DNA of 12,860 nt from a virus (lineage: Duplodnaviria > Heunggongvirae > Uroviricota > Caudoviricetes): the IMG/VR virus record IMGVR_UViG_2737471837_000008, positions 1-12,860 of that record; one strand, 5' to 3'. Within the stretch, counting starts at the first letter, position 1. Every line of letters starts with the position of its first letter. Below the pieces are notes generated by a model that saw only the letters and a program-made list of their open reading frames with translations, was not told where the DNA came from and searched no databases. The position numbers were made by a program, and so were the translations under genes. This document shows positions 1 through 12,860 of this stretch, one piece after another.

Positions 1-180
1 TCACCGTCGCGGCCTGTCCGGTTTCTTCCACTGATACGGCCTCACATCATCCTGCTGGTGGCGTTCCTGTTGCAGCACAACGGAAACAGGCGCTGAACAC
101 CTGTTAATTTTGCTTGCTGGTTGTTTGATTTCGGCAATGCTGCGGATCATCTCCAGCATATCGGCTTCGGTGATGGTCAT
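1..180 (-). CDS. hypothetical small protein (59 aa, MTITEADMLEMIRSIAEIKQ...)
   Basis: ATG at 178-180 preceded by AAGGTG about 7 nt upstream; stop TGA at 1-3. Below the ORF-track size cutoff. No recognisable family. Confidence 0.3.
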   Translation of the reverse strand: MTITEADMLEMIRSIAEIKQPASKINRCSAPVSVVLQQERHQQDDVRPYQWKKPDRPRR

Positions 181-204
181 GATTTACACCTTAGGAAATC
201 TTAG

Positions 205-480
205 GGGCTGGTTGACACTTTCCGGCTTAAGACCTTAACAAATCTTAACATCGCAGGTTGACACACTTGACACTTTTTCGCGAAAAACCTTATCAAACCT
301 TAGCATTTCTAAGCATGGCAACTTGACACTTTTCGCGATTTTTTCGGCTTTTTGACGTGGTAAATCTGGCGCAAAGCCAGTAACGGCGGGGTTTACAGCG
401 AGGTTGACACTTTTTCGCGTTCAGAGTGTAAAGTGTCAACCCGGCAGACGGCCTGACTTGACACTTTTCGCGAATTTTAC
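205..480. repeat. iteron array: four copies of TTGACAC-TTTT(T)CGCG plus partial and inverted copies
   Basis: Full units at 267-283, 323-338, 404-419, 458-473; half-sites GGTTGACAC at 211-218 and 257-264; inverted GTGTCAA at 433-439 facing TTGACAC at 458-464. Second motif CCTTAACAAATCTTAACA / CCTTATCAAACCTTAGCA at 233-250 and 289-304. Lies directly 3' of the winged-HTH gene. Confidence 0.6.
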
Positions 481-485
481 GGTCA

Positions 486-1010
486 TTAATGGGATGATTT
501 TTCCCACTCAGCCAGGGCGTTTAGTCCGGCTTCACTCCAGTTATCCAGCTCATCGGGACAATCACCTGCAACATAGCAGAGCTCACAACGCAGCATACGA
601 ATTGCCAGCCTGGCATTTTCCCGAAAATCATACTGCTCAAAGTAATATTGCCCAGCATAATCCTCAAGGCAGATAGCACCATCATCAAGAAATTGCACTT
701 CACAGCATAATTCCCCGGCTGCATCCTGCACACGCTGCTGTATGTCATCGTCCGTTACTGGTGCAGGGATTTTACCGTCTCTGGCCTTAACTGCTTTCCA
801 GAACTCGCCCCACGTCATTTCCAGCGTTCTTTCTGGCCACATTTCAGAAACGGTGTCTTTCCCCTGTGCTGGTGGGCTGTTCCGCTGCTCTGTCGCCTCC
901 ACATCAATTTTTTTGCCAGACATGATCACTTCGCCTTTCTCGATCCAGTCGTAAACTGTCTGGCGGCTTACGCCTTTGTGTTTAGCATATTCTGCTTTAC
1001 TCATTAGCAT
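486..1010 (-). CDS. MerR/Nu1-type winged-HTH DNA-binding protein with C-terminal Cys cluster; candidate TerS-like / packaging-redirection (Rpp-like) or excisionase-like protein
   Basis: N-terminus MSKAEYAKHKGVSRQTVYDWIEKGEV matches the excisionase/Nu1 HTH pattern; six Cys between residues 102 and 151 (C-x2-C-x5-C at 142-151). ATG at 1008-1010 with GAGAGGG 5 nt upstream. Function inferred, not demonstrated. Confidence 0.6.
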   Translation of the reverse strand: MLMSKAEYAKHKGVSRQTVYDWIEKGEVIMSGKKIDVEATEQRNSPPAQGKDTVSEMWPERTLEMTWGEFWKAVKARDGKIPAPVTDDDIQQRVQDAAGELCCEVQFLDDGAICLEDYAGQYYFEQYDFRENARLAIRMLRCELCYVAGDCPDELDNWSEAGLNALAEWEKSSH

Positions 1011-1019
1011 ATTGCCCTC

Positions 1020-2057
1020 TCATGAAATAACGTTGTGTGCTGTCTGCCCCTGTGACTTCAGCTTGTTTTCAGCATATGCCTCGAACACCGTCACCCACGC
1101 ATCACCATCGGCAGTAAGATACGCTCCGATGTGGCGAACGGACTTAACCAGAAATTTTCCGGTGAACGTGGTCGAGTTTTTGGAGATAACACTGGGCGCT
1201 GTAGTATTAGTCATGAGGATCGACGATGCTCCTGAAAACATTCCCTGAGGCAGTTCGATCACATCACTACACCGTATATCTCCCCGCAACGGGCATTTAA
1301 AACTGACGGTAAAAGGCTTTATCCATGTTGGTTGGCCTATTAATTCATAAGGTTCAATTTTCTTTATTTTCCCCAGTTCCAGTGATGAATTATCATAAAG
1401 ACGAATGCGATCTGGTAACATAATAATGCCTACCCCGCTATATCCTTTCTGACGAATAATCGCTTTCGATAAACTTCGCACAGCCATAGCCAGCGAACCT
1501 ATATCAAGGTAAACCAGTGGAATATCTTCAGGTAAAACCAGGTTATCACTGACCGAGGATTCAATAATTTTATCTGGATACGCCTGTTTCAAAACACGCG
1601 ATAACACGTCTCCTAATTTTTCTCCCTGAAATCCAGTACCGCTAAATCTCACAGGAGAACCATCTTCTTTTTTTCTATAAACGGGGTTAACAACCAGATT
1701 CAACGTCTGGTTGGTGCCAATCCAGTTAGCATAAGCCATATAGACTTCACCATAGATAATCTCTCCCTGTTGATCTGGATTAGCCAAAGGAAGTCCAGAA
1801 GCAAAGCCAGCAGTTAAGCTAACAATGCATCCGTTGAGATTTACACTTTGCTGTAACATCTCAATAGGTAAGCCATAAATTGTCAGCATCGTTCCGGAAC
1901 CAACAACATCCAGGCCGGTTACTTCAAAGTCAAATTCAACATGCAACCCACATCCTGGTGTTTCACTGGTATCAAAAGGCCCAATGGGGTTCCCATTGCT
2001 ATCCACTGGCGGCTTACCAGTTTTAGGGTTAATAATTTCCAGTCGGTAATAACGCAT
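1020..2057 (-). CDS. hypothetical protein, 345 aa, beta-rich, no recognised family
   Basis: Long ORF with protein-like composition; ATG at 2055-2057 overlaps the upstream stop (TAATG); 9-nt gap to the downstream winged-HTH gene. Confidence 0.7.
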   Translation of the reverse strand: MRYYRLEIINPKTGKPPVDSNGNPIGPFDTSETPGCGLHVEFDFEVTGLDVVGSGTMLTIYGLPIEMLQQSVNLNGCIVSLTAGFASGLPLANPDQQGEIIYGEVYMAYANWIGTNQTLNLVVNPVYRKKEDGSPVRFSGTGFQGEKLGDVLSRVLKQAYPDKIIESSVSDNLVLPEDIPLVYLDIGSLAMAVRSLSKAIIRQKGYSGVGIIMLPDRIRLYDNSSLELGKIKKIEPYELIGQPTWIKPFTVSFKCPLRGDIRCSDVIELPQGMFSGASSILMTNTTAPSVISKNSTTFTGKFLVKSVRHIGAYLTADGDAWVTVFEAYAENKLKSQGQTAHNVIS

Positions 2058-2392
2058 TAGTAAACCTCGAACTGATTAGTACTTTCACGAAAAATGAGCT
2101 TTCCCGGAGCAAATGGAAGTGCCAGATTGATGTCGTAACCATCAGGGGAAGCAATCAGAGGCGTGTATACAATGACCTCACCAGAACTGTTTTTCAGTTC
2201 CAGATAATAGCGATTCGCATACAGATTGAACGGAACACGGGCAAATAAAATTTCCCCTCCCATCCTGAATTTAAATTTGAAAGGTTTTTCCCCATCAGGT
2301 TTGAATGGTATAAAAGTATTCATACTCCAGACTCCTGCACAATTTGATTCTTGATACCTGACAATGATTGCCACTAAATTATTTAGTGGCAT
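2057..2392 (-). CDS. hypothetical protein, 111 aa (or 88 aa from internal ATG)
   Basis: ATG at 2390-2392, 7 nt after the stop of the 223-aa gene; alternative start at MNTFIPF with AGGAG upstream. Beta-rich; no recognised family. Confidence 0.55.
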   Translation of the reverse strand: MPLNNLVAIIVRYQESNCAGVWSMNTFIPFKPDGEKPFKFKFRMGGEILFARVPFNLYANRYYLELKNSSGEVIVYTPLIASPDGYDINLALPFAPGKLIFRESTNQFEVY

Positions 2393-2399
2393 GATTCAC

Positions 2400-3071
2400 T
2401 CACTCTGTTTTTTCCAGTTGAGCCAGCCGCCCGGATATTTCTTCCAGTTTTTCCAGGGCTGGCTTGCAGGCCGCATCAATAACGTCCCGGACCATTCCGG
2501 CAAGCTGCTCTTCTGCTGTCGGCGTTGTTACTTCCACACCTGATGGTTTCCCGCCCTTATCCCATACGCCCAACGGCACGAGCGCAACGTGATCGATAAG
2601 AAATGGCGTACCCTCAATAAAAAAATTGTCCTCGCCCATTACATCAGGAACTTCTGCCCCACCGGACGCACCACAAAACACAACCGACGGGCTGGTGGAT
2701 ACCTCCCCCCGTGCTTTCTGGATGTAATCGATGATTTCCTGCCCGTAAATCCGGCATACGCCCCACACCTCGTCACCGCGAATATACGGCAACATAACGG
2801 TGCCAATAATGCGCGACCGTTCGCCCACGTCTTCAAGGGTTTTGCTTTCGGGATGGTCGATAATGACGGGTACTCCGGCGCAACGTTCCAGGAACTGCGG
2901 ATTGAGATAAGTTTGCGGTGAACGCCAGACAAATTCTTTTTCTTCGGCGCGGTAGGCCATGCCCGTCCCTGTAATACGCAGGTTAACCAGCCACATGTTG
3001 GAGAACTGATAAGGCGACGGTAGCTGACCGTCCCGAATCTGCTTCGCCGCCTCAATTTCTGTTAAAAGCAT
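2400..3071 (-). CDS. hypothetical protein, 223 aa, with G-A-S-G-G (GxSxG) motif; possible serine hydrolase/protease
   Basis: ORF with ATG at 3069-3071 (no obvious SD). GASGG at residues 134-138 and His73 in VIIDHPE. Enzymatic assignment is inference from the motif alone. Confidence 0.65.
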   Translation of the reverse strand: MLLTEIEAAKQIRDGQLPSPYQFSNMWLVNLRITGTGMAYRAEEKEFVWRSPQTYLNPQFLERCAGVPVIIDHPESKTLEDVGERSRIIGTVMLPYIRGDEVWGVCRIYGQEIIDYIQKARGEVSTSPSVVFCGASGGAEVPDVMGEDNFFIEGTPFLIDHVALVPLGVWDKGGKPSGVEVTTPTAEEQLAGMVRDVIDAACKPALEKLEEISGRLAQLEKTE

Positions 3072-3135
3072 AATGTTATCCGGTTATAAGCAATAAGCCC
3101 CGCCAAATCCGGCAGGGCTGAACTCAGCACGTTTT

Positions 3136-3714
3136 TCATGCCCCCGCGAGGCTTGCAGTGTTAATTTTGACCAGGCGACGGGGAGGGATTTTGAAAGCAC
3201 TAAGCCAGTTATTCGGATCCCCCTGATATTCAGTAATCCGCCGTCCGTCTTCATCCATTCTTACGGTTTTACGCAAATAGCCCGGCGTATTTTCCACAGC
3301 CCACTGAACACTGTCTTTTGCAGCCTGGTAAATCTGATCTTCCAGCACCGCCAGCGTTGCAGAATCTGAAACGGAACGAATATCCACATCACTGAATTTT
3401 TTAGCCAGCTTCTGTGCACCAATTAATGCACGCTTGCGGTAATCCATCGACTTTTCACCAGCAAACGGGGCTGGAGCGCGACGGCCCATATTGCTGTATG
3501 CGGAATCTGCTTTAGCCTGGGCTTCTGCCAGTGAGGATTCATCTTCGACTGACGCGACGATGTTTTGATTAGCGTTATCCTCTTTTATGAAATCCTGTGC
3601 GGGGATCGCATTCAGAATTTCGATAATCTCCTGCGGAGTGCTGCCCTGCGACTCTGACAGAGCGTTAACCACCTCCATCAGTTTTAATCGCAAATCTTCT
3701 TTGCTTGCTGGCAT
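3136..3714 (-). CDS. hypothetical protein, 192 aa, helical with acidic low-complexity segment
   Basis: ORF track starts at GTG 3723; the ATG at 3712-3714 (MPASKEDL...) with GAGAGGTGG upstream is the more likely start. No recognised family. Confidence 0.6.
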   Translation of the reverse strand: MPASKEDLRLKLMEVVNALSESQGSTPQEIIEILNAIPAQDFIKEDNANQNIVASVEDESSLAEAQAKADSAYSNMGRRAPAPFAGEKSMDYRKRALIGAQKLAKKFSDVDIRSVSDSATLAVLEDQIYQAAKDSVQWAVENTPGYLRKTVRMDEDGRRITEYQGDPNNWLSAFKIPPRRLVKINTASLAGA

Positions 3715-3752
3715 TTTTACCACCTCTCTTTTTCACCAAAAAATCACGACCA

Positions 3753-3932
3753 TCAGGCCGGACGTTCTACGGGATAAAGCGCCCGCTGCATTAAACGCCG
3801 GGCGACCTCATGAATGCTCGGAGCAATCCCCAGCGGAGAATTGCGGCGTTCCTCGTCCTGGATGCGCTGTAATGCTTCAATCTGATCACGAGCGAGTAAA
3901 ACGGGTTTCACGCTGGCTTTTCTCATAGTCAT
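3753..3932 (-). CDS. small protein (57-59 aa), possible RHH-like DNA-binding protein
   Basis: ORF-track start is TTG at 3950; ATGs at 3930-3932 and 3924-3926 follow AGGAG. Sequence MTMRKASVKPVLLARDQIEALQRIQ... has a strand-helix-helix pattern. First gene after the terminators. Confidence 0.45.
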   Translation of the reverse strand: MTMRKASVKPVLLARDQIEALQRIQDEERRNSPLGIAPSIHEVARRLMQRALYPVERPA

Positions 3933-4050
3933 ATCTCCTGAACAAAACAATGGTTATGATTGCATAAACTGAAATGATGATCTACATCATTGCAATTTAT
4001 GAAACAATAACGCATGATGATCGCGTTCTTCCCATTGACTTCAATCACCT

Positions 4051-4122
4051 GAAAAACAAAGCCCGCAACACTTCTGGCTGCGGGCTTTTTACTGGCACAA
4101 AAAAGCCGGGAAAAATCCCGGC
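4051..4122. terminator. tandem intrinsic terminators (one bidirectional) just 3' of the PerC-like gene
   Basis: Hairpin GCCCGCA(4061-4067)/TGCGGGC(4079-4085) flanked by A-run 4052-4060 and TTTTT 4086-4090. Second hairpin GCCGGGA(4105-4111)/CCCGGC(4117-4122) preceded by AAAAAA 4099-4104, i.e. a T-run on the minus strand. PerC-like stop is at 4128-4130. Confidence 0.6.
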
Positions 4123-4127
4123 CTCCG

Positions 4128-4415
4128 TCACTGACTGCAATTTTTCGATCCAGGGTATTTCCTGAATGCCTTACCATTGGGCTGATGTAATCCCATCCCG
4201 GCATGTGCCCGGCTGATGGTTTCGCGCATCTCCCCGAAATTATCCTGCCTTGCTGGTGGGCGTGCTGCCTTGCGGATACATTCCGCGCGACGTTTTGCCG
4301 CCTGTTCCCGTGCCTTGTCATCATTCGCCAGCATGATGACCTCAGCCCACCGCGCCGCCGCTCTCCGGTACAGACCACGCGCTTCCAGTGCTTCCGCTTT
4401 GCTGTCGTGAATCAT
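4128..4415 (-). CDS. PerC-family transcriptional regulator-like protein (95 aa)
   Basis: AEALEARGLYRRAAARWAEVIM... matches the PerC/Pch family signature as I recall it. ATG at 4413-4415 overlaps the upstream stop (ATGA); AAGGAG upstream. Confidence 0.7.
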   Translation of the reverse strand: MIHDSKAEALEARGLYRRAAARWAEVIMLANDDKAREQAAKRRAECIRKAARPPARQDNFGEMRETISRAHAGMGLHQPNGKAFRKYPGSKNCSQ

Positions 4416-4990
4416 GCGCCTGTTTTCTCCTTTGCTGCCCGGCGCTGACGTTTGCGCTTCTCATTCAGCGCCACCAGCCGCGTTTCTGCGTCCTGTTGTT
4501 CCTGTGGTGTCACCTCGCCGCACGGCTGGCCTTTCAGGTCGTAACGTGCACCACCAGCCATTAAGGCGCGGTAATAGCGCGGAGACTGCGCATAAGATGC
4601 CAGCGTCGCACGTAATGCCCCTGGCCCGAATGCCAGCCCCCTGACGGCGAGATCCTGCATCAGGTCGTCGAATATCCCCACCTTAAGCGGCTTCGGTGCT
4701 TCCCGGCTGAATAATTCAGGCCACAACTCAGTGAGGCGGTTAACGCGCCTGCGGTTTTTGCGCTGGCGTTTGGTCATATGCCGCCACGGTGTCGCCCCTG
4801 TGGGCTTCTGCTGCGCTTTCTGGTTACCGGGCATCACTTTATGCGCCGATGTGGTTTTATCCTGCTCCTGTGCCGCCTGCGTCGTTTTCTGCGGCGTGCC
4901 GTAAATGCCTTTAGGTTTTCTGTTAATGGTCAGCGTTGTCATGCTTTGCCCCATCGTTTTTACTGATTGTTTCATGCCCGGCACTTTCAT
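4412..4990 (-). CDS. FinO/ProQ-domain RNA-binding protein (RNA chaperone family)
   Basis: WPELFSREAPKPLKVGIFDDL...LRATLASYAQSPRYYRALMAGGARYDLKGQPCGEVTPQEQ aligns with the ProQ N-terminal FinO domain (PLKIGIFQDL...LRSALRLYTSSWRYL...RVDLDGNPCGELDEQ). Start uncertain (ATGs at 4990, 4975, 4954, 4942); lysine-rich N-terminal tail. Confidence 0.8.
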   Translation of the reverse strand: MKVPGMKQSVKTMGQSMTTLTINRKPKGIYGTPQKTTQAAQEQDKTTSAHKVMPGNQKAQQKPTGATPWRHMTKRQRKNRRRVNRLTELWPELFSREAPKPLKVGIFDDLMQDLAVRGLAFGPGALRATLASYAQSPRYYRALMAGGARYDLKGQPCGEVTPQEQQDAETRLVALNEKRKRQRRAAKEKTGA

Positions 4991-5282
4991 CTACCGGATA
5001 CCACGCAAATGATCCAGGTTCATCAGAAAGAATGAATTTTGTGTTTGGCAAATACATGCATTCGTAAAAACCATCTTCCTGATGATACGGTGCCATTCCA
5101 TACTCACCAGTAAGAATCGGTAATATTTCAGAATAAATTTCTGAATCACCAGAATAAAACACATCACAAATCGCCCATGCTGCAATCGGACTATACCAGT
5201 CGTTGCCATTGTCATTCCTGAATTTCGCCCACCACCCCTGAACCGCTGGCGAAATATTTTTTGGTATGGCTTCAAGAAACAT
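4923..5282 (-). CDS. hypothetical protein, 119 aa, aromatic-rich
   Basis: ATG at 5280-5282 with AGGGGG 5 nt upstream; overlapping opposite-frame ORF 4991-5332 looks like junk. No recognised family. Confidence 0.5.
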   Translation of the reverse strand: MFLEAIPKNISPAVQGWWAKFRNDNGNDWYSPIAAWAICDVFYSGDSEIYSEILPILTGEYGMAPYHQEDGFYECMYLPNTKFILSDEPGSFAWYPVDESAGHETISKNDGAKHDNADH

Positions 5283-5357
5283 ACAACCCCCTTTGCAACT
5301 CTATTTCTATATTTTCGTGATAAAAATGCCAATTATTCACACTATTCCATTTTGATT

Positions 5358-5635
5358 GTGAACAGTCGTGAATAGTTAGTGAACAGTTTTTCAATAACTG
5401 TTCACCATGTTTTTTAGTTTAAAATCATATGGTTATTTTGTTTCAGTGAACAGTTGAACAGTTACCCCCTATAGAATTTAATTTGCAGTGAAAAATGATT
5501 CACCGTTACAAGTTACAATGCGTTTTAAAAGTTTTAGCCGAAACTGTTCACGCCGTTCACTTCGTCGATGAATCCAGTAATGACGCGGCTTTTAGAGGTG
5601 AACAGTAGTGTTCAGTAGTGTTCACAACTGTTCAC
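5358..5635. repeat. replication-origin-like iteron cluster (GTGAACAG / CTGTTCAC) around AT-rich spacers
   Basis: GTGAACAG at 5358-5365, 5379-5386, 5446-5453, 5598-5605; variants at 5368-5375 and 5454-5461; CTGTTCAC at 5398-5405, 5544-5551, 5628-5635; tandem TAGTGTTCA at 5606-5625. AT-rich 5406-5445 and 5461-5490. Starts at the primase/helicase stop codon. Confidence 0.7.
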
Positions 5636-7404
5636 TTTTCATGGATTTTTGGCACAGCGGGTAACCATTCATTGGCACTATCAGCCAACTCCATGTTGTA
5701 GCGCATTCCGACATTGGTCTTTGCCTTCTTGTACTCAGCCCCATATTCTTTCATCACTTTTGGAAAATCTTTGCCAAAATTCGTTAGATTTAATGGCTTA
5801 TCGAAACCATAAGCATCCATATATGCAAGATATGCATGGTAGAGATAAATGCGAGGGGCTCTTGGATATATATTCAGGTTTCCCATGAACATTCCTACAG
5901 CTTCACCAAGTTCGACAATATGGTTACAAAAAGCATATAGCGGATCAGTATGGCGTTTTACTTCCATTGCTTCTTCACCATCACGTTGTTCGAGCAGTAA
6001 TGTTCTTGCTTTTTCGGGATCTGAAAAATTTACCAACAGCCTACGGACTATTACCGGAATTTCTGCTGCGATTTTTTTTGGTAAACATGTGTCCTTGTTT
6101 TCTTCCGCTATCGGATTATTGAACTGAAAAATAACCCTACGGCGTGAAATACCTCCCGCTCTTTCTGTAAAAACCATCGGTTTATTATTTGTTATCAAAA
6201 CAACTGAGCGTAAGACGGTGGTGTATCTTTTTTCATATTTCGGATTAATTTGCAGAGGATCCCCACCTGTTATAGCTTTAATACCATTACCTTCGCCAAA
6301 ATATTTAGGTTGGTCCGGTAAAATAATCAGACTTTTACCAACCAGTTGCTCACGTCCACCAGCATCATCTAACGCTTTCATATCACTGCCTGCGGTGTTC
6401 TGCTCACCCGCCAACATTCTGGCAATTTGAGTAAACATACTTTTACCACTTCCACCTTCGCCAGTTGCTTCAATGAATAATTGCCAGTCGTAGCGATTAG
6501 CCAAAACCATAAACAGAGCAGCACATATCCGCTTCATCTTTGATGAATCGTATCCTGCTGCATGTGACAGCCAACGATGAAAATGGGGCGCATGGTCATG
6601 AATATTTTCACCAAGCGCAGGTGGCGTATAATAAATTCCATTATGCGAAGTGATCCAGTGCTCTGGTGAATGAGGTAAAAATCTACCACTTGTTATGTCA
6701 TAAACTCCATTTTCAAAAGGTATTATGGTGTCACGCTGTTCTCTCATTACGGGTACAGATATTTTTAAAGCATCAACCGCGTTACTAATTGCCCGCTTAC
6801 TGAAATTTGTCTTATTTTTTTCGTAAATTGATACCATTTTACGACTCAACTCCATATCAGATATTTTTTTCCACACTCCAGAACAGTATGCATAAGCAAA
6901 ATTGTTACCAGGGTGAACAGCTATTTCCTCAAAGCATTCAGCCAAAAGTGAAGCCCGCTCGTTATCCGCCATTCTGGAAAGAGATATTTTGTGTTTTTTC
7001 TCAGTCCTTACTGACAGAATATCCCCGCGCTCTGCCTGTTCGCGGATCCGTTGCAGGTAGTCGCGCCAGTTCTCCGGCTCCCGGTCGGTGATACCTTTGT
7101 ATAATTTCGCATCCTGTACGCCAGCCAGCGCCAGCTTTTCAGCGATAGCATTGATCTGGATTGGTTCGATCTCCCCAGCGAGATAGACACGCGCAAAGCG
7201 GCGTTCATCGTCGACAATGCGGATATTCGCCAGGTCTGCCAGTTGCTTCGGCCCCAGGTAAACAGGTGGCACGTTATCGCCGTGTTTTCGTCCTTCGCTT
7301 TCAATCCAGTGTTGAGCATGGGCATAAGCGTCCGTCCCGGCAAAAATGATTACCTCGGTGAATTTATCCTTCGGCTGATATTTTAAATTCGGTGCGTTTT
7401 TCAC
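5632..7404 (-). CDS. P4-family primase/helicase-type replication protein (D5-like SF3 helicase domain)
   Basis: 590 aa with Walker A GEGGSGKS (GX4GKS) and the overall pattern of P4-alpha/D5-type C-terminal helicases. GTG start at 7402-7404 overlaps the upstream stop (GTGA); first ATG is about 143 codons in. Confidence 0.85.
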   Translation of the reverse strand: MKNAPNLKYQPKDKFTEVIIFAGTDAYAHAQHWIESEGRKHGDNVPPVYLGPKQLADLANIRIVDDERRFARVYLAGEIEPIQINAIAEKLALAGVQDAKLYKGITDREPENWRDYLQRIREQAERGDILSVRTEKKHKISLSRMADNERASLLAECFEEIAVHPGNNFAYAYCSGVWKKISDMELSRKMVSIYEKNKTNFSKRAISNAVDALKISVPVMREQRDTIIPFENGVYDITSGRFLPHSPEHWITSHNGIYYTPPALGENIHDHAPHFHRWLSHAAGYDSSKMKRICAALFMVLANRYDWQLFIEATGEGGSGKSMFTQIARMLAGEQNTAGSDMKALDDAGGREQLVGKSLIILPDQPKYFGEGNGIKAITGGDPLQINPKYEKRYTTVLRSVVLITNNKPMVFTERAGGISRRRVIFQFNNPIAEENKDTCLPKKIAAEIPVIVRRLLVNFSDPEKARTLLLEQRDGEEAMEVKRHTDPLYAFCNHIVELGEAVGMFMGNLNIYPRAPRIYLYHAYLAYMDAYGFDKPLNLTNFGKDFPKVMKEYGAEYKKAKTNVGMRYNMELADSANEWLPAVPKIHEK

Positions 7405-7691
7405 TTCTTACCTCCCGCAACCAACATTGCCCGGATTTTTTTAATATTCGTGGCTGCACGTCTCGCCACTGCCTGTTGTTTGTTTTCCACCAGAATAAAA
7501 TCACGATCAAACTGACGGCGCGGCATTACGCAGTCATATTCGTAAACCTCACGGCGGTAGGTGATATTGCCTGGCGTAACGTGACGAATAACCACTCGCC
7601 CCCCACGTCTGGTGTCGCGGTAAATATCTCCGTGTCTGATTTCAGGCCGAGAGAGACCGCTGGCAGTAAAGCCAGAATTTTTCTTTTTCAT
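7401..7691 (-). CDS. hypothetical basic protein, 96 aa, translationally coupled to the primase/helicase
   Basis: ATG at 7689-7691 with AGGAAA upstream; stop overlaps the helicase GTG start. No recognised family. Confidence 0.6.
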   Translation of the reverse strand: MKKKNSGFTASGLSRPEIRHGDIYRDTRRGGRVVIRHVTPGNITYRREVYEYDCVMPRRQFDRDFILVENKQQAVARRAATNIKKIRAMLVAGGKK

Positions 7692-7695
7692 GGTT

Positions 7696-7896
7696 TTATT
7701 TTCCTGTCAGCAGTTCCGGTTTTATTTCCGCACGAATACAGAGTTCAGAAAAAAATTCAGGAGAACCAACAATCTCATTACTTTTCAGTCGGCATTGTGA
7801 TTTCACTTTCCCTTTATCCAGGTAAACCAGTACGCGTCCGGTGAAATCATCTGGCACACTCAGGTTAACTGTCATTGTTGCAGGCTGATTACCCAT
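7696..7896 (-). CDS. small protein, 66 aa, single copy of an FTG-x-LV...NG-V-S...L module
   Basis: PDDFTGRVLVYLDKGKVKSQCRL...SPEFFSELCIRAEIKP aligns with both halves of the neighbouring 121-aa protein. Start overlaps the upstream stop by 8 nt. Confidence 0.6.
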   Translation of the reverse strand: MGNQPATMTVNLSVPDDFTGRVLVYLDKGKVKSQCRLKSNEIVGSPEFFSELCIRAEIKPELLTGK

Positions 7897-8254
7897 GATT
7901 CACCCCCTGAATGACCTGATAACCGCAACTGGTCAGCAACTCGATAAATTCCGGCAGTGTTCCGAAACAGCAATCATCTCGCAGCCGTTCTCGGGATACT
8001 TCAACGCCGTTTTCGTAGTGACTCACCATGCGTCCGGTAAAATGCAGATCATCATCGTGATGGCTCGTTAACGGCTTAATCAGTCGCGCACGTTCTGCCA
8101 GCTCCAGCAATGCTTCAACGCTTCCGGCAATTGCACCATCCGGCAGGTGATAATTACTTGCCACGCGTCCATTCTCCACGTTAACCAGTAGCTGCCCGGT
8201 GAATTTCTCATCAAACTGAATGCTGTTAAGGTCAGAAATTGACAGGTTATGCAT
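7889..8254 (-). CDS. small protein, 121 aa, tandem duplication of the same ~50-aa module
   Basis: DEKFTGQLLVNVENGRVASNYHL...SVEALLELAERARLIKP and DLHFTGRMVSHYENGVEVSRERL...LPEFIELLTSCGYQV. ATG at 8252-8254 preceded by AGGAGGT; overlaps the upstream gene as ATGCATAA. Confidence 0.65.
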   Translation of the reverse strand: MHNLSISDLNSIQFDEKFTGQLLVNVENGRVASNYHLPDGAIAGSVEALLELAERARLIKPLTSHHDDDLHFTGRMVSHYENGVEVSRERLRDDCCFGTLPEFIELLTSCGYQVIQGVNHG

Positions 8255-8450
8255 GGTGCACCTCCTGGCGAATACGGGCGGCGAATACCATCACGCAACC
8301 AGCCGGGGATTGCTGGCGCGCTTCCTGTTCGCTGGTGGCCTCGATGTGAATCACGCGCGGTTGTGCCGTACTCAGGGCGATAAAACGCCAGATGTATTTA
8401 TTCAGGTTGTGCGAGTCCCGCCCTTGCGGGTGTGTGGTATGATTTAACAT
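8247..8450 (-). CDS. hypothetical protein, 67 aa (MLNHTTHPQGRDSHNLNKYIWRF...)
   Basis: Internal ATG at 8448-8450 with GAGG 6 nt upstream; this is the C-terminal in-frame part of the 403-aa ORF-track entry. First gene of the leftward replication operon. Confidence 0.5.
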   Translation of the reverse strand: MLNHTTHPQGRDSHNLNKYIWRFIALSTAQPRVIHIEATSEQEARQQSPAGCVMVFAARIRQEVHHA

Positions 8451-8539
8451 AGCTACCTCGATACTTTCGCTATCGTTGGTGGTTAGAAGCCCCGTTACTG
8501 CTCCAACAGTGCGGGGTTTCGTCATTTTATGACTGATAA

Positions 8540-8640
8540 AAATCAAGTGTCGGACACATGTTATTTTATCGGTGTGGGACACGTCAAGCATTGCATTAAA
8601 CTTTTTTCTCGCTATCATTGTCGGACACCAAACCAATCGG
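8540..8640. promoter_or_regulatory. divergent promoter/operator region with repeated TGTC-G-GACA palindromes
   Basis: TGTCGGACAC at 8548-8557 and 8619-8628, variant TGTGGGACAC at 8573-8582, inverted variant at 8696-8704. Candidate rightward promoter TTGCAT(8591-8596)-16 nt-TATCAT(8613-8618); candidate leftward promoter TTGACG(rc 8582-8587)-18 nt-TAACAT(rc 8558-8563). Confidence 0.45.
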
Positions 8641-8649
8641 AAATCAGAA

Positions 8650-8829
8650 ATGGCAACGAAATCAGTAAATGCAAAATCGAAAAGAATAGATGCACGTGTC
8701 CCACTCCATATCGTTGATGCCATGGATAAGGTCAAAGAAGACGGCGAAAGTACAGGGCAGTTTGTAACAGCCGCATTAGAAGGCGAGATCAAACGCCGCC
8801 AGCGTCGCAAGGCCAAAGAGCAGGAGTAA
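8650..8829 (+). CDS. ribbon-helix-helix (CopG/Arc-like) DNA-binding protein, 59 aa
   Basis: MATKSVNAKSKRIDARVPLHIVDAMDKVKEDGESTGQFVTAALEGEIKRRQ fits a strand-helixA-helixB RHH layout with a basic tail. Only convincing plus-strand gene; opposite-strand frame through it reads as Ser/Leu/Cys-rich junk. Confidence 0.6.
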   Translation: MATKSVNAKSKRIDARVPLHIVDAMDKVKEDGESTGQFVTAALEGEIKRRQRRKAKEQE

Positions 8830-8886
8830 CCATCACTAGCGCCGTGGAGTGATGAACTGTGGCGCACAGGGTTACAGGTATATACG

Positions 8887-9063
8887 ATGACTGACAAATC
8901 ATTAAAGAAATTATCCTCATCCAGGAAAAAACAACGCAAAAATGCGGTAAGCGAACAAGAACAGGAAAGATTCGCACCTTGTTCGTTTGCTCTTGAGAAA
9001 TTCCTTAAAGAGCACAGGAAAAAGCTCTCGTTGCAAACCTTGGAACGAACCAAATCTGACTGA
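8887..9063 (+). CDS. possible small basic protein, 58 aa (MTDKSLKKLSSSRKKQRKNAVSEQEQERF...)
   Basis: ATG at 8887-8889, stop TGA at 9061-9063, downstream of the RHH gene on the same strand. Weak SD; below the ORF-track cutoff. Confidence 0.3.
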   Translation: MTDKSLKKLSSSRKKQRKNAVSEQEQERFAPCSFALEKFLKEHRKKLSLQTLERTKSD

Positions 9064-9458
9064 TCACATTGCCCACCAGCCGCAAATGTGGCATTGTTGG
9101 TGATGCGTTCAAGTATGTAGCTTTTCCACTGGCGGCTCTCTGCGGTCGCCTTTGTTTTATCCAGAACGAAATCAGACATCAGATTGATCAGCACCTGGCG
9201 ACCTGACAAAATCGCATCAGTCGCGCCACCAGCAAAATTTTTTGCTTTCCGGACAGCGTGGCCAACGGCATTTTGCAGCAAAATATTCTGCATTTCTGGC
9301 GTGCTGTAGTAACGGTGATCAGTGCCTTCACATTGAACGAACTTGTCGCTAAAATTCACCCACATAGCAAACATCGCGGTGCTGTAGGTAATTCGTTCAC
9401 AAAGGCGCTCCGGCAACGGGGCGCTTTCTCTTTTTGTAACGGTCAGAGCGTTACACAT
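9064..9458 (-). CDS. hypothetical protein; convincing only over roughly the first 130 codons, 3' end undefined
   Basis: ATG at 9456-9458 overlaps the antirepressor stop by 8 nt. Protein-like composition to about 9064, then junk-like sequence antisense to the plus-strand genes, with no stop until 8247. Confidence 0.4.
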
Positions 9459-10299
9459 GGCTGTTTTCCTCCATGCGACGGGCTAACCAACGCTGCGAAA
9501 GACGAATTAATTCAGCCTTCCGCTGGTGGTAGTCCTGGCCTAACTCAATCAGCGTGATATTGCTCTGCTCAAGGTAAGAAAGGTGCTCAAGCTGCAACGT
9601 GCTCATGTGGTCGCGTGGTTCGCCTGTGATGCCGTTCGCCTGCGCCCACTGTTTTGCAGTCATGCCACCCAGCACGATACGCGCCAGCATATTGGCTTCC
9701 GTGGTGTAGTGGTGCTGGAGTGTGTTTTTACCCAGTTCAGCCCGGTACGCCTCCAGCGCGGCGCACATCGGCTTAAAGTAGCTGGCAACGGTGATACGGG
9801 CTTTCAGTTCCCTGCGTAACGCTGCGGAACGCACTGGCGCTACCTTGTGTAGCTCCTCCTCGCATTTGATGAAGTACTGACGAACGGCGCGGCCCTGTTC
9901 GGTGCGTTCGACCATCGCCAGTTCTTTCGCCATGTTCGTGGAGATCAAATACTCTTCACTGCGACGATCACCGCCGCGCTTTGTTGTCCAATCAGAATCA
10001 AACTGTTCAATATTTACACTTTGGTTCCCCCGTTTCGGGGAATCAAAGTACAAATTTTCTACAACTTCAAAATCCACGCCATTTTTAAATCCGTACTCAT
10101 CAATGCGTCCTTTAATCCAGGTTGTGAAATCACGCTTCACACCCAGCGCCTTATGCAACGCTCTGGCGCTAACAATATTGGTTTCACGCCCGCCAATAAC
10201 ACCGGAAATAACCGGGATAATATCGCCGAAATTTTGCAGATTCTGGTTTTCAGGCCGAACGAAGCCCTGCCCCTGTACGGGCGTTTTTGGAAATTTCAT
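9451..10299 (-). CDS. AntA/AntB-family phage antirepressor-like protein (282 aa)
   Basis: N-terminal IPVISGVIGGRETNIVSARALHKALGVKRDFTTWIKGRIDEYGFKNGVDFEV matches the AntA antirepressor domain pattern. ATG at 10297-10299 with AGGAG 6 nt upstream. Confidence 0.75.
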   Translation of the reverse strand: MKFPKTPVQGQGFVRPENQNLQNFGDIIPVISGVIGGRETNIVSARALHKALGVKRDFTTWIKGRIDEYGFKNGVDFEVVENLYFDSPKRGNQSVNIEQFDSDWTTKRGGDRRSEEYLISTNMAKELAMVERTEQGRAVRQYFIKCEEELHKVAPVRSAALRRELKARITVASYFKPMCAALEAYRAELGKNTLQHHYTTEANMLARIVLGGMTAKQWAQANGITGEPRDHMSTLQLEHLSYLEQSNITLIELGQDYHQRKAELIRLSQRWLARRMEENSHV

Positions 10300-10376
10300 A
10301 AAAACTCCTGCTATCGAATTAAGTTACTTTTATTTGCTGGTGGATAGCTGGGGGCAATAGCCCCGTAGCCATTTAA

Positions 10377-10574
10377 TCAGGTAGCTGTTCCGCGTGATTC
10401 CGCAATACGCTGATTAATCCACTCGTCAATTTCACTCTCAACGAAAGCAATAGCTCGCGAGCCAATTTTAACTGATGCAGGAAATTTACCTTGCCCCATA
10501 AGGCGATAAATCCATGCCTTGCTATATCCAGTTCTACGCTGAACTTCCGTTAAACGAATAAGAGAGTTTGCCAT
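10377..10574 (-). CDS. alpA: AlpA-family phage transcriptional regulator (65 aa)
   Basis: MANSLIRLTEVQRRTGYSKAWIYRLMGQGKFPASVKIGSRAIAFVESEIDEWINQR matches the AlpA pattern including the EIDEW motif. ATG at 10572-10574 with AAGGTG upstream. Confidence 0.9.
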   Translation of the reverse strand: MANSLIRLTEVQRRTGYSKAWIYRLMGQGKFPASVKIGSRAIAFVESEIDEWINQRIAESRGTAT

Positions 10575-10833
10575 ATATTCACCTTGTAACGTCTATAAAG
10601 GTGTACATAGCTTGCATTAAGAAAAGTGATATTTATAGATGCTTACCATTATGAATGGCGAATACCATTTCAGTGAAATAGCTCCACCTTTTTTTAATAA
10701 TGGCGTTTACTATTTTAAGTATCATGCTGACGTGAAACACGAAGAAAAATTACTGTTCTTACGATTTAATCTGCATTGGTGGTTACTTTTTTTTGAAAGG
10801 AAACCACCATTTTTCTGGAATAGCGACCACTAT
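10575..10833. promoter_or_regulatory. AT-rich alpA upstream region with perfect 8-bp inverted repeat
   Basis: TGGTGGTT (10777-10784) and AACCACCA (10802-10809) separated by 17 nt; about 260 bp of AT-rich non-coding sequence. Regulatory role is inferred. Confidence 0.4.
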
Positions 10834-11547
10834 TTAACTTTTTGTTTTTTTTGGTCTTCTACCAATACGCTTCAGATGTTCAGGCCTTAAAATCAGATTC
10901 ACAGCCCTAGCAACATTAGAACCCGCCCCCCTTTTTTTCAAATATTCAAGTACCTCATGCTCTGTCGGAGCCGTCTGTGGGTCATCTGGGTCATACGTCG
11001 ACCATAGTTCCCTTATAGCATCCTGCACATACTCCAACCCATCACTCTTATGCCCATAAGTACACAAATACTCGTCAGGATTAATTACCTGATGAGATGA
11101 TTCAATGATTGCTGGCGGATTAACTTCCTTAACAGGTATAGGGCGAGGGCATCTCGCAAAATCAACGCTCTCATTTTTTATCCACTCATATAAAGAATGG
11201 CGACTAATTAAAGTTTTATCCTTGCTTATCTCATATGCACGATCGGTCAGTTGCGCTGATGTCAGACGTTTGTACTCAATATCACAAACATTTCCCCAAT
11301 TATCGTACTCAACTATTTCAGAGGTACATTCAACAGGAGTTAAGACACCACGACGGATGGCTGTTACCATTCCATTAGCCAACCCCCATGCCATTTTCCA
11401 ACGTTCATGTTTATTATCTCTGACATGTTCAAGAGTAGGGTAATCATAAGGATCAATTCCGGCCAACAATAAAGCGGCCTGGGTGATAGAAAACTCCTGT
11501 ACTGTTCGCCAGTGGGATAAGTCAGGAATGTTTTCCACAATTGGCAT
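10834..11547 (-). CDS. hypothetical protein, 237 aa, between integrase and alpA
   Basis: ORF track starts at TTG 11562; ATG at 11545-11547 (MPIVENIPDL...) follows AAGGGGGAG. Basic C-terminal tail (RIGRRPKKTKS). No recognised family. Confidence 0.65.
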   Translation of the reverse strand: MPIVENIPDLSHWRTVQEFSITQAALLLAGIDPYDYPTLEHVRDNKHERWKMAWGLANGMVTAIRRGVLTPVECTSEIVEYDNWGNVCDIEYKRLTSAQLTDRAYEISKDKTLISRHSLYEWIKNESVDFARCPRPIPVKEVNPPAIIESSHQVINPDEYLCTYGHKSDGLEYVQDAIRELWSTYDPDDPQTAPTEHEVLEYLKKRGAGSNVARAVNLILRPEHLKRIGRRPKKTKS

Positions 11548-11645
11548 ATTCTCCCCCTTCAAGCGATCTAATGTTAAGGCCGATCCAGCTCTGTTTGCAT
11601 CAGCCTTTTTAGGTGCTCAAAGTCTACTACTGTATACTCAACCAG

Positions 11646-12860
11646 TCACCCGCATTTTCCGAACTCACCATGCACCACATTTCCGCCATGCTCGAGCGAA
11701 TCCATATAGTCGGCATACCACTGGAGCATCTCCCGGCGACCATCCAGATATTGCGCATGGTTGTATGTGCCACGAATTGAGTTTTTATCGACGTGTGCGA
11801 GCTGCGTCTCTATCCACGCGGTGTTATAGCCCTGCTCATGCAAAATGGTGCTCATGGTGTGCCGGAATCCATGACCAGTAACGCGCCCGGCATAGCCGAT
11901 ACGACGAATGAGCACATTCATCGCCATTTCACTCATTGGCTTACTGTGGTGAATACGACCGGGGAAAATAAACTGATACTGGCCTGTCATGTTTTTTAAC
12001 TGCTCCAGTATTTTTATCGCCTGTTCTGGTAATGGCACACAATGCGGACGGCGCATCTTCATTCGTTCTTTAGGCACTTCCCACAAACGATTATCAAAAT
12101 CGATCTCCTGCCATTCTGCCTGCCGTAATTCCCCGGGTCTGACACCTGTCAGAATTAATAGCCGCATTGCCAGTTTGACGATCTGGCTTCCGGTGTACGT
12201 ATTAAAAACGCGGAAAAATTCCGGCAGTTCGTCGGCCTTCAAATAGGCGTAATGCTCTTTTTTATGTGGAGCAAATGCGCTCACCAGGTCAGGGGCTGGA
12301 TTATATTCGGCGCGTCCGGTGATGATTGCGTACCGGAACACCTCGCCGCATCGCTGGCGAACCTTACGCAATTTTTCAGTCGCACCACGGTCATTAAGAC
12401 GGGAAAGAACCGCCAGCAATTCCATCGGCTTAATTTCTGCGATCGGCCTACCGCCAATGTACGGAAAAACATCTTTTTCAAACGTCTCGATCATTTCCTC
12501 GGCGTATGACGATGACCACCTGTCGATCCGCTTTTCGTACCATTCGCGAGCAATACCCTCAAAAGTATTGCCAAATTTGCTCGCCTGTTCTCGCTTTTGG
12601 GCTTTTCTGGCCTCACTTGGATTTATACCACCAGCAAGAAGCCTTTTAGCCTCATCCCTTGCCGCCCTGGCATCAGACAGAGACACATCAGGGTACACAC
12701 CCAACGACAACATTTTGGGCTTTCCTGCAAACCTGTAGCGCAGTCGCCACCCTTTCGAACCGTTCGGCTCAATGAGCAACGAAAGCCCGTTACCGTCATT
12801 GAGTGTATAAGCCTTTTCTTTCGGCTTCGCGCGCCTGATGGCAAGGTCTGAAAGCAGCAT
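11646..12860 (-). CDS. int: tyrosine site-specific integrase, P4-type
   Basis: N-terminus MLLSDLAIRRAKPKEKAYTLNDGNGLSLLIEP...VSLSDARAARDEAKRLL is typical of P4-like integrases; catalytic HGFRHT and RGTYNHAQY motifs present. ATG lies on the last three bases of the window, so the true start may be a few codons beyond it. Confidence 0.95.
   Translation of the reverse strand: MLLSDLAIRRAKPKEKAYTLNDGNGLSLLIEPNGSKGWRLRYRFAGKPKMLSLGVYPDVSLSDARAARDEAKRLLAGGINPSEARKAQKREQASKFGNTFEGIAREWYEKRIDRWSSSYAEEMIETFEKDVFPYIGGRPIAEIKPMELLAVLSRLNDRGATEKLRKVRQRCGEVFRYAIITGRAEYNPAPDLVSAFAPHKKEHYAYLKADELPEFFRVFNTYTGSQIVKLAMRLLILTGVRPGELRQAEWQEIDFDNRLWEVPKERMKMRRPHCVPLPEQAIKILEQLKNMTGQYQFIFPGRIHHSKPMSEMAMNVLIRRIGYAGRVTGHGFRHTMSTILHEQGYNTAWIETQLAHVDKNSIRGTYNHAQYLDGRREMLQWYADYMDSLEHGGNVVHGEFGKCG

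Follow-up and report, generated by a model that had tools for sequence, protein, structure and literature searches.

Phage satellites are known to remodel the capsids of their helper phages, to redirect packaging or to build capsids of their own. To our knowledge, they are generally assumed to lack tail parts, and tail genes are taken as a sign that an element is not a satellite. The stretch of DNA analyzed here, referred to as the window, comprises positions 1 to 12,860 of the IMG/VR virus record IMGVR_UViG_2737471837_000008 (Caudoviricetes), and the subject of the study is a minus-strand operon of five consecutive genes in it, which a preliminary description had left unrecognized and had interpreted either as a capsid-morphogenesis module or as accessory, possibly anti-phage, cargo. 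The window (about 13 kb) is a phage satellite of the phage-inducible chromosomal island (PICI) or P4-like kind, an island built on integrase, AlpA and primase genes. Its operon encodes homologues of the capsid scaffold, the prohead protease, the baseplate plug and the baseplate central hub of a myophage group typified by Rac-SA53. Together with the gene for a 174-aa helix-turn-helix (HTH) protein and a repeat array, the five genes probably constitute the late morphogenesis and packaging unit of a satellite with a Rac-SA53-type helper.

The PICIs of Gram-negative bacteria, e.g., EcCICFT073 (Fillol-Salom 2018, 2019; PMC6092414, PMC6739421), share with the island a backbone of integrase, AlpA, primase and PerC-type genes in about 10–15 kb, a morphogenesis and packaging region that follows the replication module and ends in a small HTH protein with a packaging role (a putative one in the island), and homologues of helper head genes, which in EcCICFT073 are the capsid-like c1499 and the decoration-like c1500. 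The island differs from EcCICFT073 in its split protease/scaffold pair and its tail-tip genes, which come from a myophage and not from lambda or phi80, and in its 174-aa protein, which has no detectable sequence relation to RppA or RppC. The capsid-forming PICIs (cf-PICIs; bioRxiv 10.1101/2022.09.08.507074) resemble it in encoding virion structural proteins of their own, a prohead protease included, and in taking the remainder from the helper. However, cf-PICIs encode capsid, portal, adaptors and large terminase (TerL) and steal whole tails, whereas the present island has no capsid, portal or TerL gene but carries inner tail-tip parts, a near-converse division of labor.

P4, the satellite of P2, is similar in having a myophage helper, a P4-type integrase, AlpA, an Icd-like gene, an alpha-like D5 primase, a late operon behind its own regulated promoter and a genome about one third to one quarter the size of that of its helper. 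Unlike the island, P4 remodels the capsid by an external scaffold and carries no tail genes; none of the families Sid, Psu, Delta and Epsilon was present in the Pfam and PHROG matches of the window proteins scanned, a set from which some small open reading frames (ORFs) were absent. In the capsid-size redirection by CpmA/CpmB of the staphylococcal island SaPI1 (cited in PMC6092414, ref. 26), an alternative internal scaffold encoded by the satellite has the capsid-binding C-terminus in common with the helper scaffold, a logic that the 192-aa product of the operon follows. The two systems differ in that they have no sequence relationship, that the scaffold is paired here with a separate protease domain, and that small capsids are for the island a prediction. 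The baseplates of simple myophages (Pam3 gp17-gp20, Mu gp44, Pa193 and E217; PMC9942802, PMC11456595) share the hub fold and the gene order, with the difference that plug and hub are here detached from the tail module and sit in a satellite. No description of satellites with baseplate hub, plug or tape-measure genes was found in the literature searched, and none of such satellites in the literature on DUF2213 and Rac-SA53. Helper-like head genes in PICIs were already known; hub, plug and tape-measure genes in satellites appear, from this search, to be new.

The window matches a chromosomal island of Escherichia coli 08-00022 at 99.9% identity, and its nature as a satellite follows from its gene layout, since the combination of integrase, AlpA and primase is typical of PICI or P4-like satellites (PMC6092414, PMC10085698). 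The genes on the minus strand are, in order, those for a P4-type integrase, a hypothetical protein, an AlpA-like HTH protein, an AntA/B antirepressor, an Icd-like protein, several small proteins including one of DUF4222 and a D5-type primase, followed by ProQ/FinO, PerC, the five operon genes, the 174-aa HTH protein and a distal 59-aa protein. In agreement with the definition of a PICI, an integrase at one end, an AlpA-type regulator, a primase/replication module and a compact size of about 10–15 kb are all found. The element departs from this definition in one respect: tail genes are "forbidden components" in the PICI model of SatelliteFinder (PMC10085698), yet the baseplate hub and plug are tail genes. 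No ORF of the window corresponded to the major capsid, portal, head-tail adaptor, connector, TerL or HNH components that characterize cf-PICIs, and inspection of the ORF list together with Pfam and PHROG matches gave no capsid, portal, large terminase, sheath, tube or lysis gene, in line with the earlier remark that the window is devoid of portal and large terminase.

The 345-aa product of the last operon gene is a baseplate central hub of the gp27/Mu gp44/Pam3 gp19 fold (Table 1). It was 74% identical to rac56 of phage Rac-SA53, encoded between the tape measure and the spike bppV, and matched PHROG 196 with an E value of 8e-37. Its AlphaFold2 model had a predicted local distance difference test (pLDDT) value of 86 and a predicted TM score (pTM) of 0.83, and the top Foldseek matches of the model were all hubs (PhiTE, Bas63, Pa193, E217, Mu gp44, T4 gp27, Pam3 gp19 and VgrG), with E values from 6e-15 to 1e-7. 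In one of its two hypotheses, the preliminary description had regarded this protein as capsid-like, as part of a capsid module with a series of scaffold, protease, HK97-fold capsid protein and TerS as in a cf-PICI. The first two assignments of that series were correct. However, the 345-aa model matched only baseplate hubs, with no HK97 fold among the Foldseek matches listed, the window is without portal, adaptor and TerL, and the 111-aa protein is assigned as the partner plug of the hub; the capsid module is thereby refuted for the 345- and 111-aa genes, and the probability left to it is negligible.

The small protein encoded immediately upstream of the hub was 78% identical over 88 aa to Rac-SA53 rac55 and matched PHROG 8737 (E 7e-36); its match to Pfam Pam3_gp18 (PF22479) reached 15.4 bits (E 0.027), below the cutoff of 24.2. 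It was assigned as the plug mainly because the genes of Rac-SA53 are arranged as in Pam3, where tube initiator, plug, hub and spike succeed one another. The start of its 111-aa ORF is uncertain. Initiation at Met24 (ATG 2323), which yields 88 aa and is preceded by a GGAG Shine-Dalgarno sequence, is favored by RefSeq, by the phage homologue and by PHROG 8737, and leaves a 76-nt gap containing the remnant of the 3′ end of a phage gene; the alternative, ATG 2392, is located at a slot junction that is conserved, and in a sister island it serves as the start of another gene.

Plug and hub are part of a captured phage cassette of 1.3 kb, the window positions 1065-2371 showing 73% blastn identity to positions 19612-20924 of Rac-SA53. 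The cassette begins with about 50 nt of the 3′ end of rac54, the gene in the tube-initiator position, which are non-coding here, and continues with the plug gene and the hub gene. The homology ends four codons short of the end of the hub gene, and 14 unrelated codons have been gained at this point.

The other two proteins with phage homologues correspond to the two ends of one phage polyprotein. Residues 58-186 of the 192-aa protein showed 64% identity to residues 295-423 of Rac-SA53 rac43, the C-terminal domain of a protease-scaffold polyprotein, and the protein matched positions 409-545 of PHROG 6216; according to the alignment, it has neither the protease domain nor the long Ala/Glu/Lys-rich spacer. 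The earlier reading of this protein as helical, acidic and scaffold-like is thus borne out. In the 223-aa protein, a capsid maturation protease domain (DUF2213; Pfam Pa193_gp24) precedes a long C-terminal helix; the protein was 53% identical to residues 1-228 of the 430-aa rac43. It has the prohead protease fold (assemblin/T4 gp21), and the fold test that had been suggested for it was therefore positive. Residues H73, S125-T126-S127-P128, E153, D160 and H161 are invariant or nearly so in the family, and the catalytic residues are predicted from their spacing. A GASGG motif and His73 had been described previously as compatible with a serine hydrolase or protease; His73 is indeed invariant and the protease-like reading correct, but GASGG is not conserved in the family and was rejected as the active site. 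DUF2213 has been renamed after Pa193 gp24, a putative scaffolding protein whose helix-turn-helix binds the capsid interior (PMC11456595).

A single polyprotein comprises both protease and scaffold in the phages, with a long helix rich in Ala, Glu and Lys between the two; in the satellite, they are two separate genes, the order of which is swapped relative to the polyprotein. Split, short-form DUF2213 proteins of this kind were found in E. coli, Citrobacter, Salmonella, Enterobacter, Pantoea and Klebsiella, with identities as low as 56%. When PDB was searched by sequence and by profile with the 345-, 223-, 174- and 57-aa proteins, nothing relevant was matched; in one profile search, the NUDIX domain of some phage homologues dominated the result, which was uninformative on the protease.

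A tblastn search of a phage collection located homologues of the 345-aa protein in 14 phages and homologues of the 223-aa protein in precisely this set: Escherichia phage Rac-SA53, phage vB_Apl-pPE4, five Yersinia phages vB_YenM, Pantoea phage PdC23 (two records), Klebsiella phages Chronis, RothC and RothD, Shewanella phage vB_Sb_QDWS, and a same-length record named Hujiaoplasma phage zrk29-1. Four of the five genes previously left unrecognized thus have confident homologues in a single phage group. As to the possibility that the genes represent one already characterized module, this is true of their folds, which are known, and not of their presence and role in a satellite. Rac-SA53 is a myophage with lambdoid regulation. 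Its genes include those for a portal, a sheath, a major head protein and a protein of head morphogenesis, and its tape measure contains a lytic transglycosylase (SLT) domain; the order of rac54, rac55, rac56 and spike bppV after the tape measure is the same as that of Pam3 gp17-gp18-gp19-gp20 (PMC9942802).

The origin of the genes from phage structural genes, the non-coding piece of a neighboring phage gene and a truncated rac52-like gene in sister islands could be expected of a decaying remnant of a Rac-SA53-like prophage whose genes serve no function of their own. However, head and tail genes that are 10 kb apart in the phage adjoin in the island, reordered, within a compact integrase/AlpA/primase element. 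The same architecture recurs at three attachment (att) sites and in several genera, the split protease/scaffold pair is conserved down to 56% identity, and the ratios of non-synonymous to synonymous substitution rates (dN/dS) among diverged satellites are 0.05-0.2. The conservation data contradict a remnant, which is extremely improbable.

The probable helper is a Rac-SA53-type temperate myophage. Among 5426 complete E. coli genomes, 34 carried a DUF2213-type satellite operon and 89 the hub of a Rac-SA53-type prophage. Of the 31 genomes with a satellite that has no hub, at least 17 also contained the prophage, as compared with 0.5 expected (hypergeometric P ~2e-23, a statistic that ignores clonal relatedness, many of the strains being enterotoxigenic E. 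coli (ETEC) from pigs). Conversely, the three complete genomes with a plug-hub island were all without a Rac-SA53-type prophage, and the helper of this exact island is for this reason a candidate only. Both the clonality of the strains and these three genomes count against the proposed helper relationship.

In five of the genomes with both elements (STEC005, STEC719, RM9088, cq9 and ETEC1732), the satellite was located 47-55 kb from the hub gene of a Rac-SA53-type prophage. The satellite at the related locus L005 (loci compared with the window bear L numbers) lies between genes of the LysR family and with an Smr domain, a few kb from a ttcA-like gene and a second integrase (19364-21038), a site taken as the Rac integration locus. 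The short distances in several genomes suggest that putative helper and satellite are near neighbors on the chromosome. Helper-type prophages (L011, 12675-13914; L002, 22226-22783) carry AntA-family antirepressors on the opposite strand inside the baseplate cluster, where a Cronobacter prophage also has a ProQ/FinO-domain gene. The satellite AntA and ProQ were only 39% and 30% identical to those prophage proteins, and this distant likeness tells nothing about the helper.

The cassette occupies a variable slot between the protease gene and the 174-aa gene. In sister island L004, the protease gene abuts the 174-aa gene with no cassette, and in sister island L003 the slot holds a truncated gene that is the remnant of a rac52-like gene; a relationship of this truncated gene to rac44 was considered and rejected, the two being unrelated. 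In an IMG/VR relative (L038), the slot contains the gene for a 205-aa protein, 82% identical to rac52, which immediately precedes the tape measure in the phage, and that for a 680-aa tape-measure homologue with 50% identity and the same first 40 residues as the phage protein. Within one satellite lineage, the slot is thus empty, filled with a rac52-like gene and tape measure, or filled with plug and hub, and by their similarities the fillings appear to be drawn from the inner tail-tip region of the helper. Islands with three different integrases and att sites, and of two replicon types, share the identical 345-aa hub.

When the window is compared with L008, L003 and L004, the late operon is constant but the replication module is not, being a D5 primase (as in the window), a RepA-type AAA_25 helicase or a DUF927 protein; the integrases differ as well. 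Satellite backbones are thus shuffled as modules.

An IMG/VR scan for the 174-aa family gave 80 loci, mostly contigs of 9-17 kb, and the small first gene and the 174-aa gene occurred together in 70 of them. Homologues of the Rac-SA53 capsid protein, portal and sheath were found in none of the 80. Between the two flanking genes there was either nothing, scaffold and protease, hub and a 238-aa protein, tape measure and hub, or a series of tape measure, 196-aa, 101-aa, hub, 120-aa and spike-like proteins; a siphophage-type tape measure, a lambda-type tail assembly protein or a single 234-261-aa gene were further options. The last arrangement was seen in about 35 satellites (L036-type, L060-L097), and three sampled proteins of this kind had no PHROG match; in about 14 satellites, nothing was present in the slot and the gap measured 378-387 nt.

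In Enterobacter and Pantoea satellites and a metagenomic contig, the order is tape measure, small first gene, hub, scaffold, protease and TerS or TerS-like gene. The hubs of these satellites form a clade of their own, with 70-76% mutual identity and about 52-55% identity to the hub of the window, from which it follows that the cassette of the window is a separate acquisition. When the Enterobacter and Pantoea satellites L013 and L015 were compared, protease, scaffold and HTH protein were 95%, 90% and 89% identical, respectively, and hub and tape measure only 70%. This difference points to module exchange, and the tail-tip genes appear from these identities to be exchanged, or to diversify, independently of the head and packaging genes.

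Selection was measured between diverged satellites, where the copies are comparable, and there the satellite copies are under purifying selection. The dN/dS values were 0.07-0.15 for the tape measure, 0.05-0.09 for the protease, 0.08-0.14 for the scaffold, 0.12-0.20 for the HTH protein and 0.04-0.15 for the 57-aa gene; for the satellite hubs, dN was 0.17-0.22 with dS saturated. The values of 0.05-0.12 obtained for the window hub against phage hubs were discarded as evidence of selection within the satellite because the donor phage is not identified, and the comparisons between satellites were used instead.

Tentatively, we propose that in this family of enterobacterial satellites the small first gene and the TerS-like HTH gene flank a swappable module that routinely supplies satellite versions of the inner tail-tip proteins of the helper (tape measure, plug, hub and spike), giving chimeric particles in which helper-built tails have a DNA-delivery core specified by the satellite. 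Such a satellite-specific core is the favored reason for these genes, and its main rival is interference by poison subunits. As an interference weapon, hub, plug and untethered protease would be dominant-negative or mistimed copies that poison tail or capsid assembly of the helper or of competing myophages. Satellites typically interfere with their helpers via assembly proteins (PMC6739421, PMC6092414), and the placement of the cassette in a variable slot, the loss of the last four residues of the hub with the gain of 14, the missing capsid-targeting C-terminal domain of the protease and the absence of the prophage from the three genomes with a hub-bearing island would all fit. The hub nevertheless retains all family-invariant residues, C-terminal tails being naturally variable in the family, and the satellite needs working tails for its own transfer. 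In addition, the hubs and tape measures of other satellites are under strong purifying selection, like structural proteins, and the complete sets of tape measure, plug, hub and spike in relatives resemble a replacement set rather than a single poison subunit. Interference is accordingly considered rather unlikely, and a satellite-specific DNA-delivery core is preferred.

The five ORFs were all recovered in the ORF check with the sizes given before (59, 192, 223, 111 and 345 aa). A TAATG overlap is present between the 111- and 345-aa ORFs, and the gaps are short, as had been stated, measuring 38, 64 and 7 nt, with 9 nt to the 174-aa gene. The unit extends beyond the five genes and includes the 174-aa gene, a TTGACAC repeat array and the distal 59-aa gene. 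Of the translational coupling proposed for the operon, the TAATG overlap is real; however, the 64-nt gap between the scaffold and protease genes contains a GC-rich hairpin followed by a U-rich tract. Such a hairpin and U tract were found at the same site, with differing stem sequences, in L013, L014, L015 and L004, and this conservation in four lineages means that the operon is not simply translationally coupled. The element is likely a partial terminator or attenuator, judged by its structure, and would yield more scaffold than protease.

Upstream of the unit, two tandem intrinsic terminators were identified after perC by a hairpin scan and RNA folding: the first has its hairpin at 4105-4126 and a T run at 4099-4104, and the second a hairpin at 4058-4088, then a T run. 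The region folds with z = -5.0, and none of 200 shuffled sequences folded as well. The terminators, which the preliminary description had already reported, would shield the operon from upstream transcription. They are followed by a palindromic operator-like element, whose two 27-nt arms are complementary at 22 positions, a value reached in 0 of 2000 shuffles; it includes the AATGATG/CATCATT repeat and repeated TGCAA(T) motifs, and the ATGATG inverted repeat noted earlier is the core of this larger, significant palindrome. In close relatives, the right arm has 1-2 mismatches, which weaken the exact ATGATG inverted repeat as a strict operator; the case for an operator is restored by the larger palindrome and its conservation across genera.

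In Pantoea and Enterobacter satellites, a terminator and then an inverted repeat of the TGCAATGATGA / ATCATCATT type precede the homologous small gene, and in the metagenomic contig L014 the terminator and TGCAA motifs are kept upstream of it. This recurrence in diverged satellites supports the earlier claim of a separate control region for the operon. In L014 (2182-4317), a Q-like antiterminator is additionally encoded upstream of PerC.

The first product of the unit is a 57-aa protein according to RefSeq. Across four lineages, 34 of its 57 residues are invariant. From its size, its sequence pattern and its position beside the palindrome, it is possibly a ribbon-helix-helix regulator; neither the protein nor a four-sequence profile had a match in Pfam, PHROG, NCBIfam or PDB.

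At the packaging end, the 174-aa protein occupies the TerS/Rpp slot, the position of packaging specificity. Its N-terminal HTH region matched the N-terminus of TerS in PHROG 57 (E 4e-7), the match to HTH_17 being under the cutoff, and its family has an invariant VSRQTVYDW motif. The phage collection contained no homologue of it, the TerS of Rac-SA53 was not similar to it, and RppC was matched neither by sequence nor by profile. All seven TTGACAC copies of the 12.86-kb window lie in an array downstream of this gene, and the intergenic region 181-485 also holds four repeats of the ACCTTA-N-CAAATCTTA type. The motif is likewise clustered downstream of the homologous gene in Enterobacter (4/4) and Pantoea (3/3), and is absent in a relative (L014) in which Sf6-type TerS genes replace the 174-aa gene. 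This co-variation of motif and gene suggests that protein and DNA site jointly set packaging specificity, the array being a candidate pac/cos-like recognition site of the 174-aa protein.

Taken together with the five genes, these elements lead us to propose the following scheme. The unit starts behind the two terminators and the conserved palindromic operator, and its first product, small and possibly of the ribbon-helix-helix type, might regulate it. On induction of the helper, the satellite scaffold and protease would compete for the capsid protein of the helper with the helper's own polyprotein. Assembly would thereby be redirected, the probable product being a capsid that holds about 13 kb, as with CpmB of SaPIs; the satellite genome is about a quarter of that of the helper, and a smaller shell would suit it. 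The satellite plug and hub would replace those of the helper in otherwise helper-built tails, producing satellite-specific tail tips, and the HTH protein would direct the packaging of satellite DNA, with the TTGACAC array as its likely target.

Several points weigh against this scheme, besides the two given for the helper. The late unit is read from its genes alone, and expression, excision, packaging and incorporation into particles are proposals. The satellite protease is without the C-terminal domain that is presumed to target the helper protease into procapsids. The redirection of capsid size is an analogy, and EcCICFT073, despite its capsid-like genes, uses capsids of full size (PMC6092414). 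The scheme does not explain what a satellite gains from encoding a hub, and the ribbon-helix-helix assignment is without a database match, as stated above.

Table 1. Coordinates of the features of the window (position 1 is its first nucleotide).
Feature	Position	Strand	Remarks
Integrase	11646-12860	-	P4-type
AlpA-like HTH protein	10377-10574	-	
D5 primase	5632-7404	-	
Tandem intrinsic terminators	4048-4126	-	Two, after perC; hairpin scan and RNA fold
Palindromic operator-like element	3953-4011		Arms 3953-3979 / 3985-4011, 27 nt each, 5-nt spacer
59-aa ORF	3753-3932	-	From ATG 3932; RefSeq start ATG 3926 (57 aa)
57-aa protein	3753-3926	-	Conserved first gene of the unit
192-aa scaffold-like protein	3136-3714	-	Residues 58-186 similar to C-terminal domain of protease-scaffold polyprotein
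GC-rich hairpin, then U-rich tract	3096-3119	-	Between scaffold and protease genes
223-aa capsid maturation protease domain	2400-3071	-	DUF2213 / Pfam Pa193_gp24, then C-terminal long helix
111-aa ORF	2057-2392	-	From ATG 2392; alternative 88 aa
Baseplate plug homologue	2057-2323	-	88 aa, or 111 aa from ATG 2392
Captured phage cassette	1056-2371	-	rac54 3′ end (~50 nt), plug gene, hub gene minus last 4 codons
345-aa baseplate central hub	1020-2057	-	gp27 / Mu gp44 / Pam3 gp19 fold
174-aa protein	486-1010	-	TerS-like N-terminal HTH; TerS/Rpp slot
Repeat array	212-467		7 TTGACAC(TTT) motifs and ACCTTA-type repeats

Elsewhere in the window, adjacent 66- and 121-aa genes (7696-8254) both belong to PHROG 340 and are apparent paralogues. 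A mechanically listed 403-aa minus-strand ORF at 8247-9458 is probably no gene; in this region, RefSeq places an Icd-like gene on the minus strand and, on the opposite strand, two small genes, one of the YlcI/YnfO family and one hypothetical.

Past the distal 59-aa gene, islands of this type carry variable cargo, with SieB (superinfection exclusion), a GH15 glycoside hydrolase and a GhoT/OrtT toxin in the type to which the window belongs (L001, 8938-9483 and 6599-8455, just outside the left end of the window), and an nSTAND1 NTPase in an island at another att site (L005, 12307-13506). This end of the satellite resembles a defense hotspot. The five genes themselves had been suggested to be anti-phage defense or accessory cargo, and PICI and P4-like islands are known to carry defense hotspots (PMC10085698, PMC13586616); a SieB, GhoT-like toxin or nSTAND1 protein in the neighboring variable region of related islands would agree with such a role. 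PADLOC, however, gave no meaningful match with the operon, only two marginal ones at 14-15 bits, and an NCBIfam search nothing relevant. Four of the five operon products show 53-78% identity to proteins of virion morphogenesis from a single phage group, and the folds are those of a hub and a prohead protease. Defense or accessory cargo is hence a very improbable function of the operon.

The satellites studied here keep diverged copies of the hub, plug and tape measure of a helper beside a split protease/scaffold pair. If these proteins enter particles, the satellites would tailor the DNA-injection end of a borrowed tail, which would be relevant in pathogenic E. coli to gene transfer, to host range and to superinfection exclusion. 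The poorly studied, toxin-carrying lambdoid myophages of the Rac-SA53 type would then become a candidate class of helpers, and detection tools that reject elements with tail genes would likely miss such satellites. A satellite-specific DNA-delivery core, if true, could allow entry into cells that exclude the tail tip of the helper, e.g., helper lysogens with exclusion acting at the tape measure or hub; an altered host range is the other possible benefit. It would represent a new mode of helper exploitation, breaking the rule that satellites lack tail genes.

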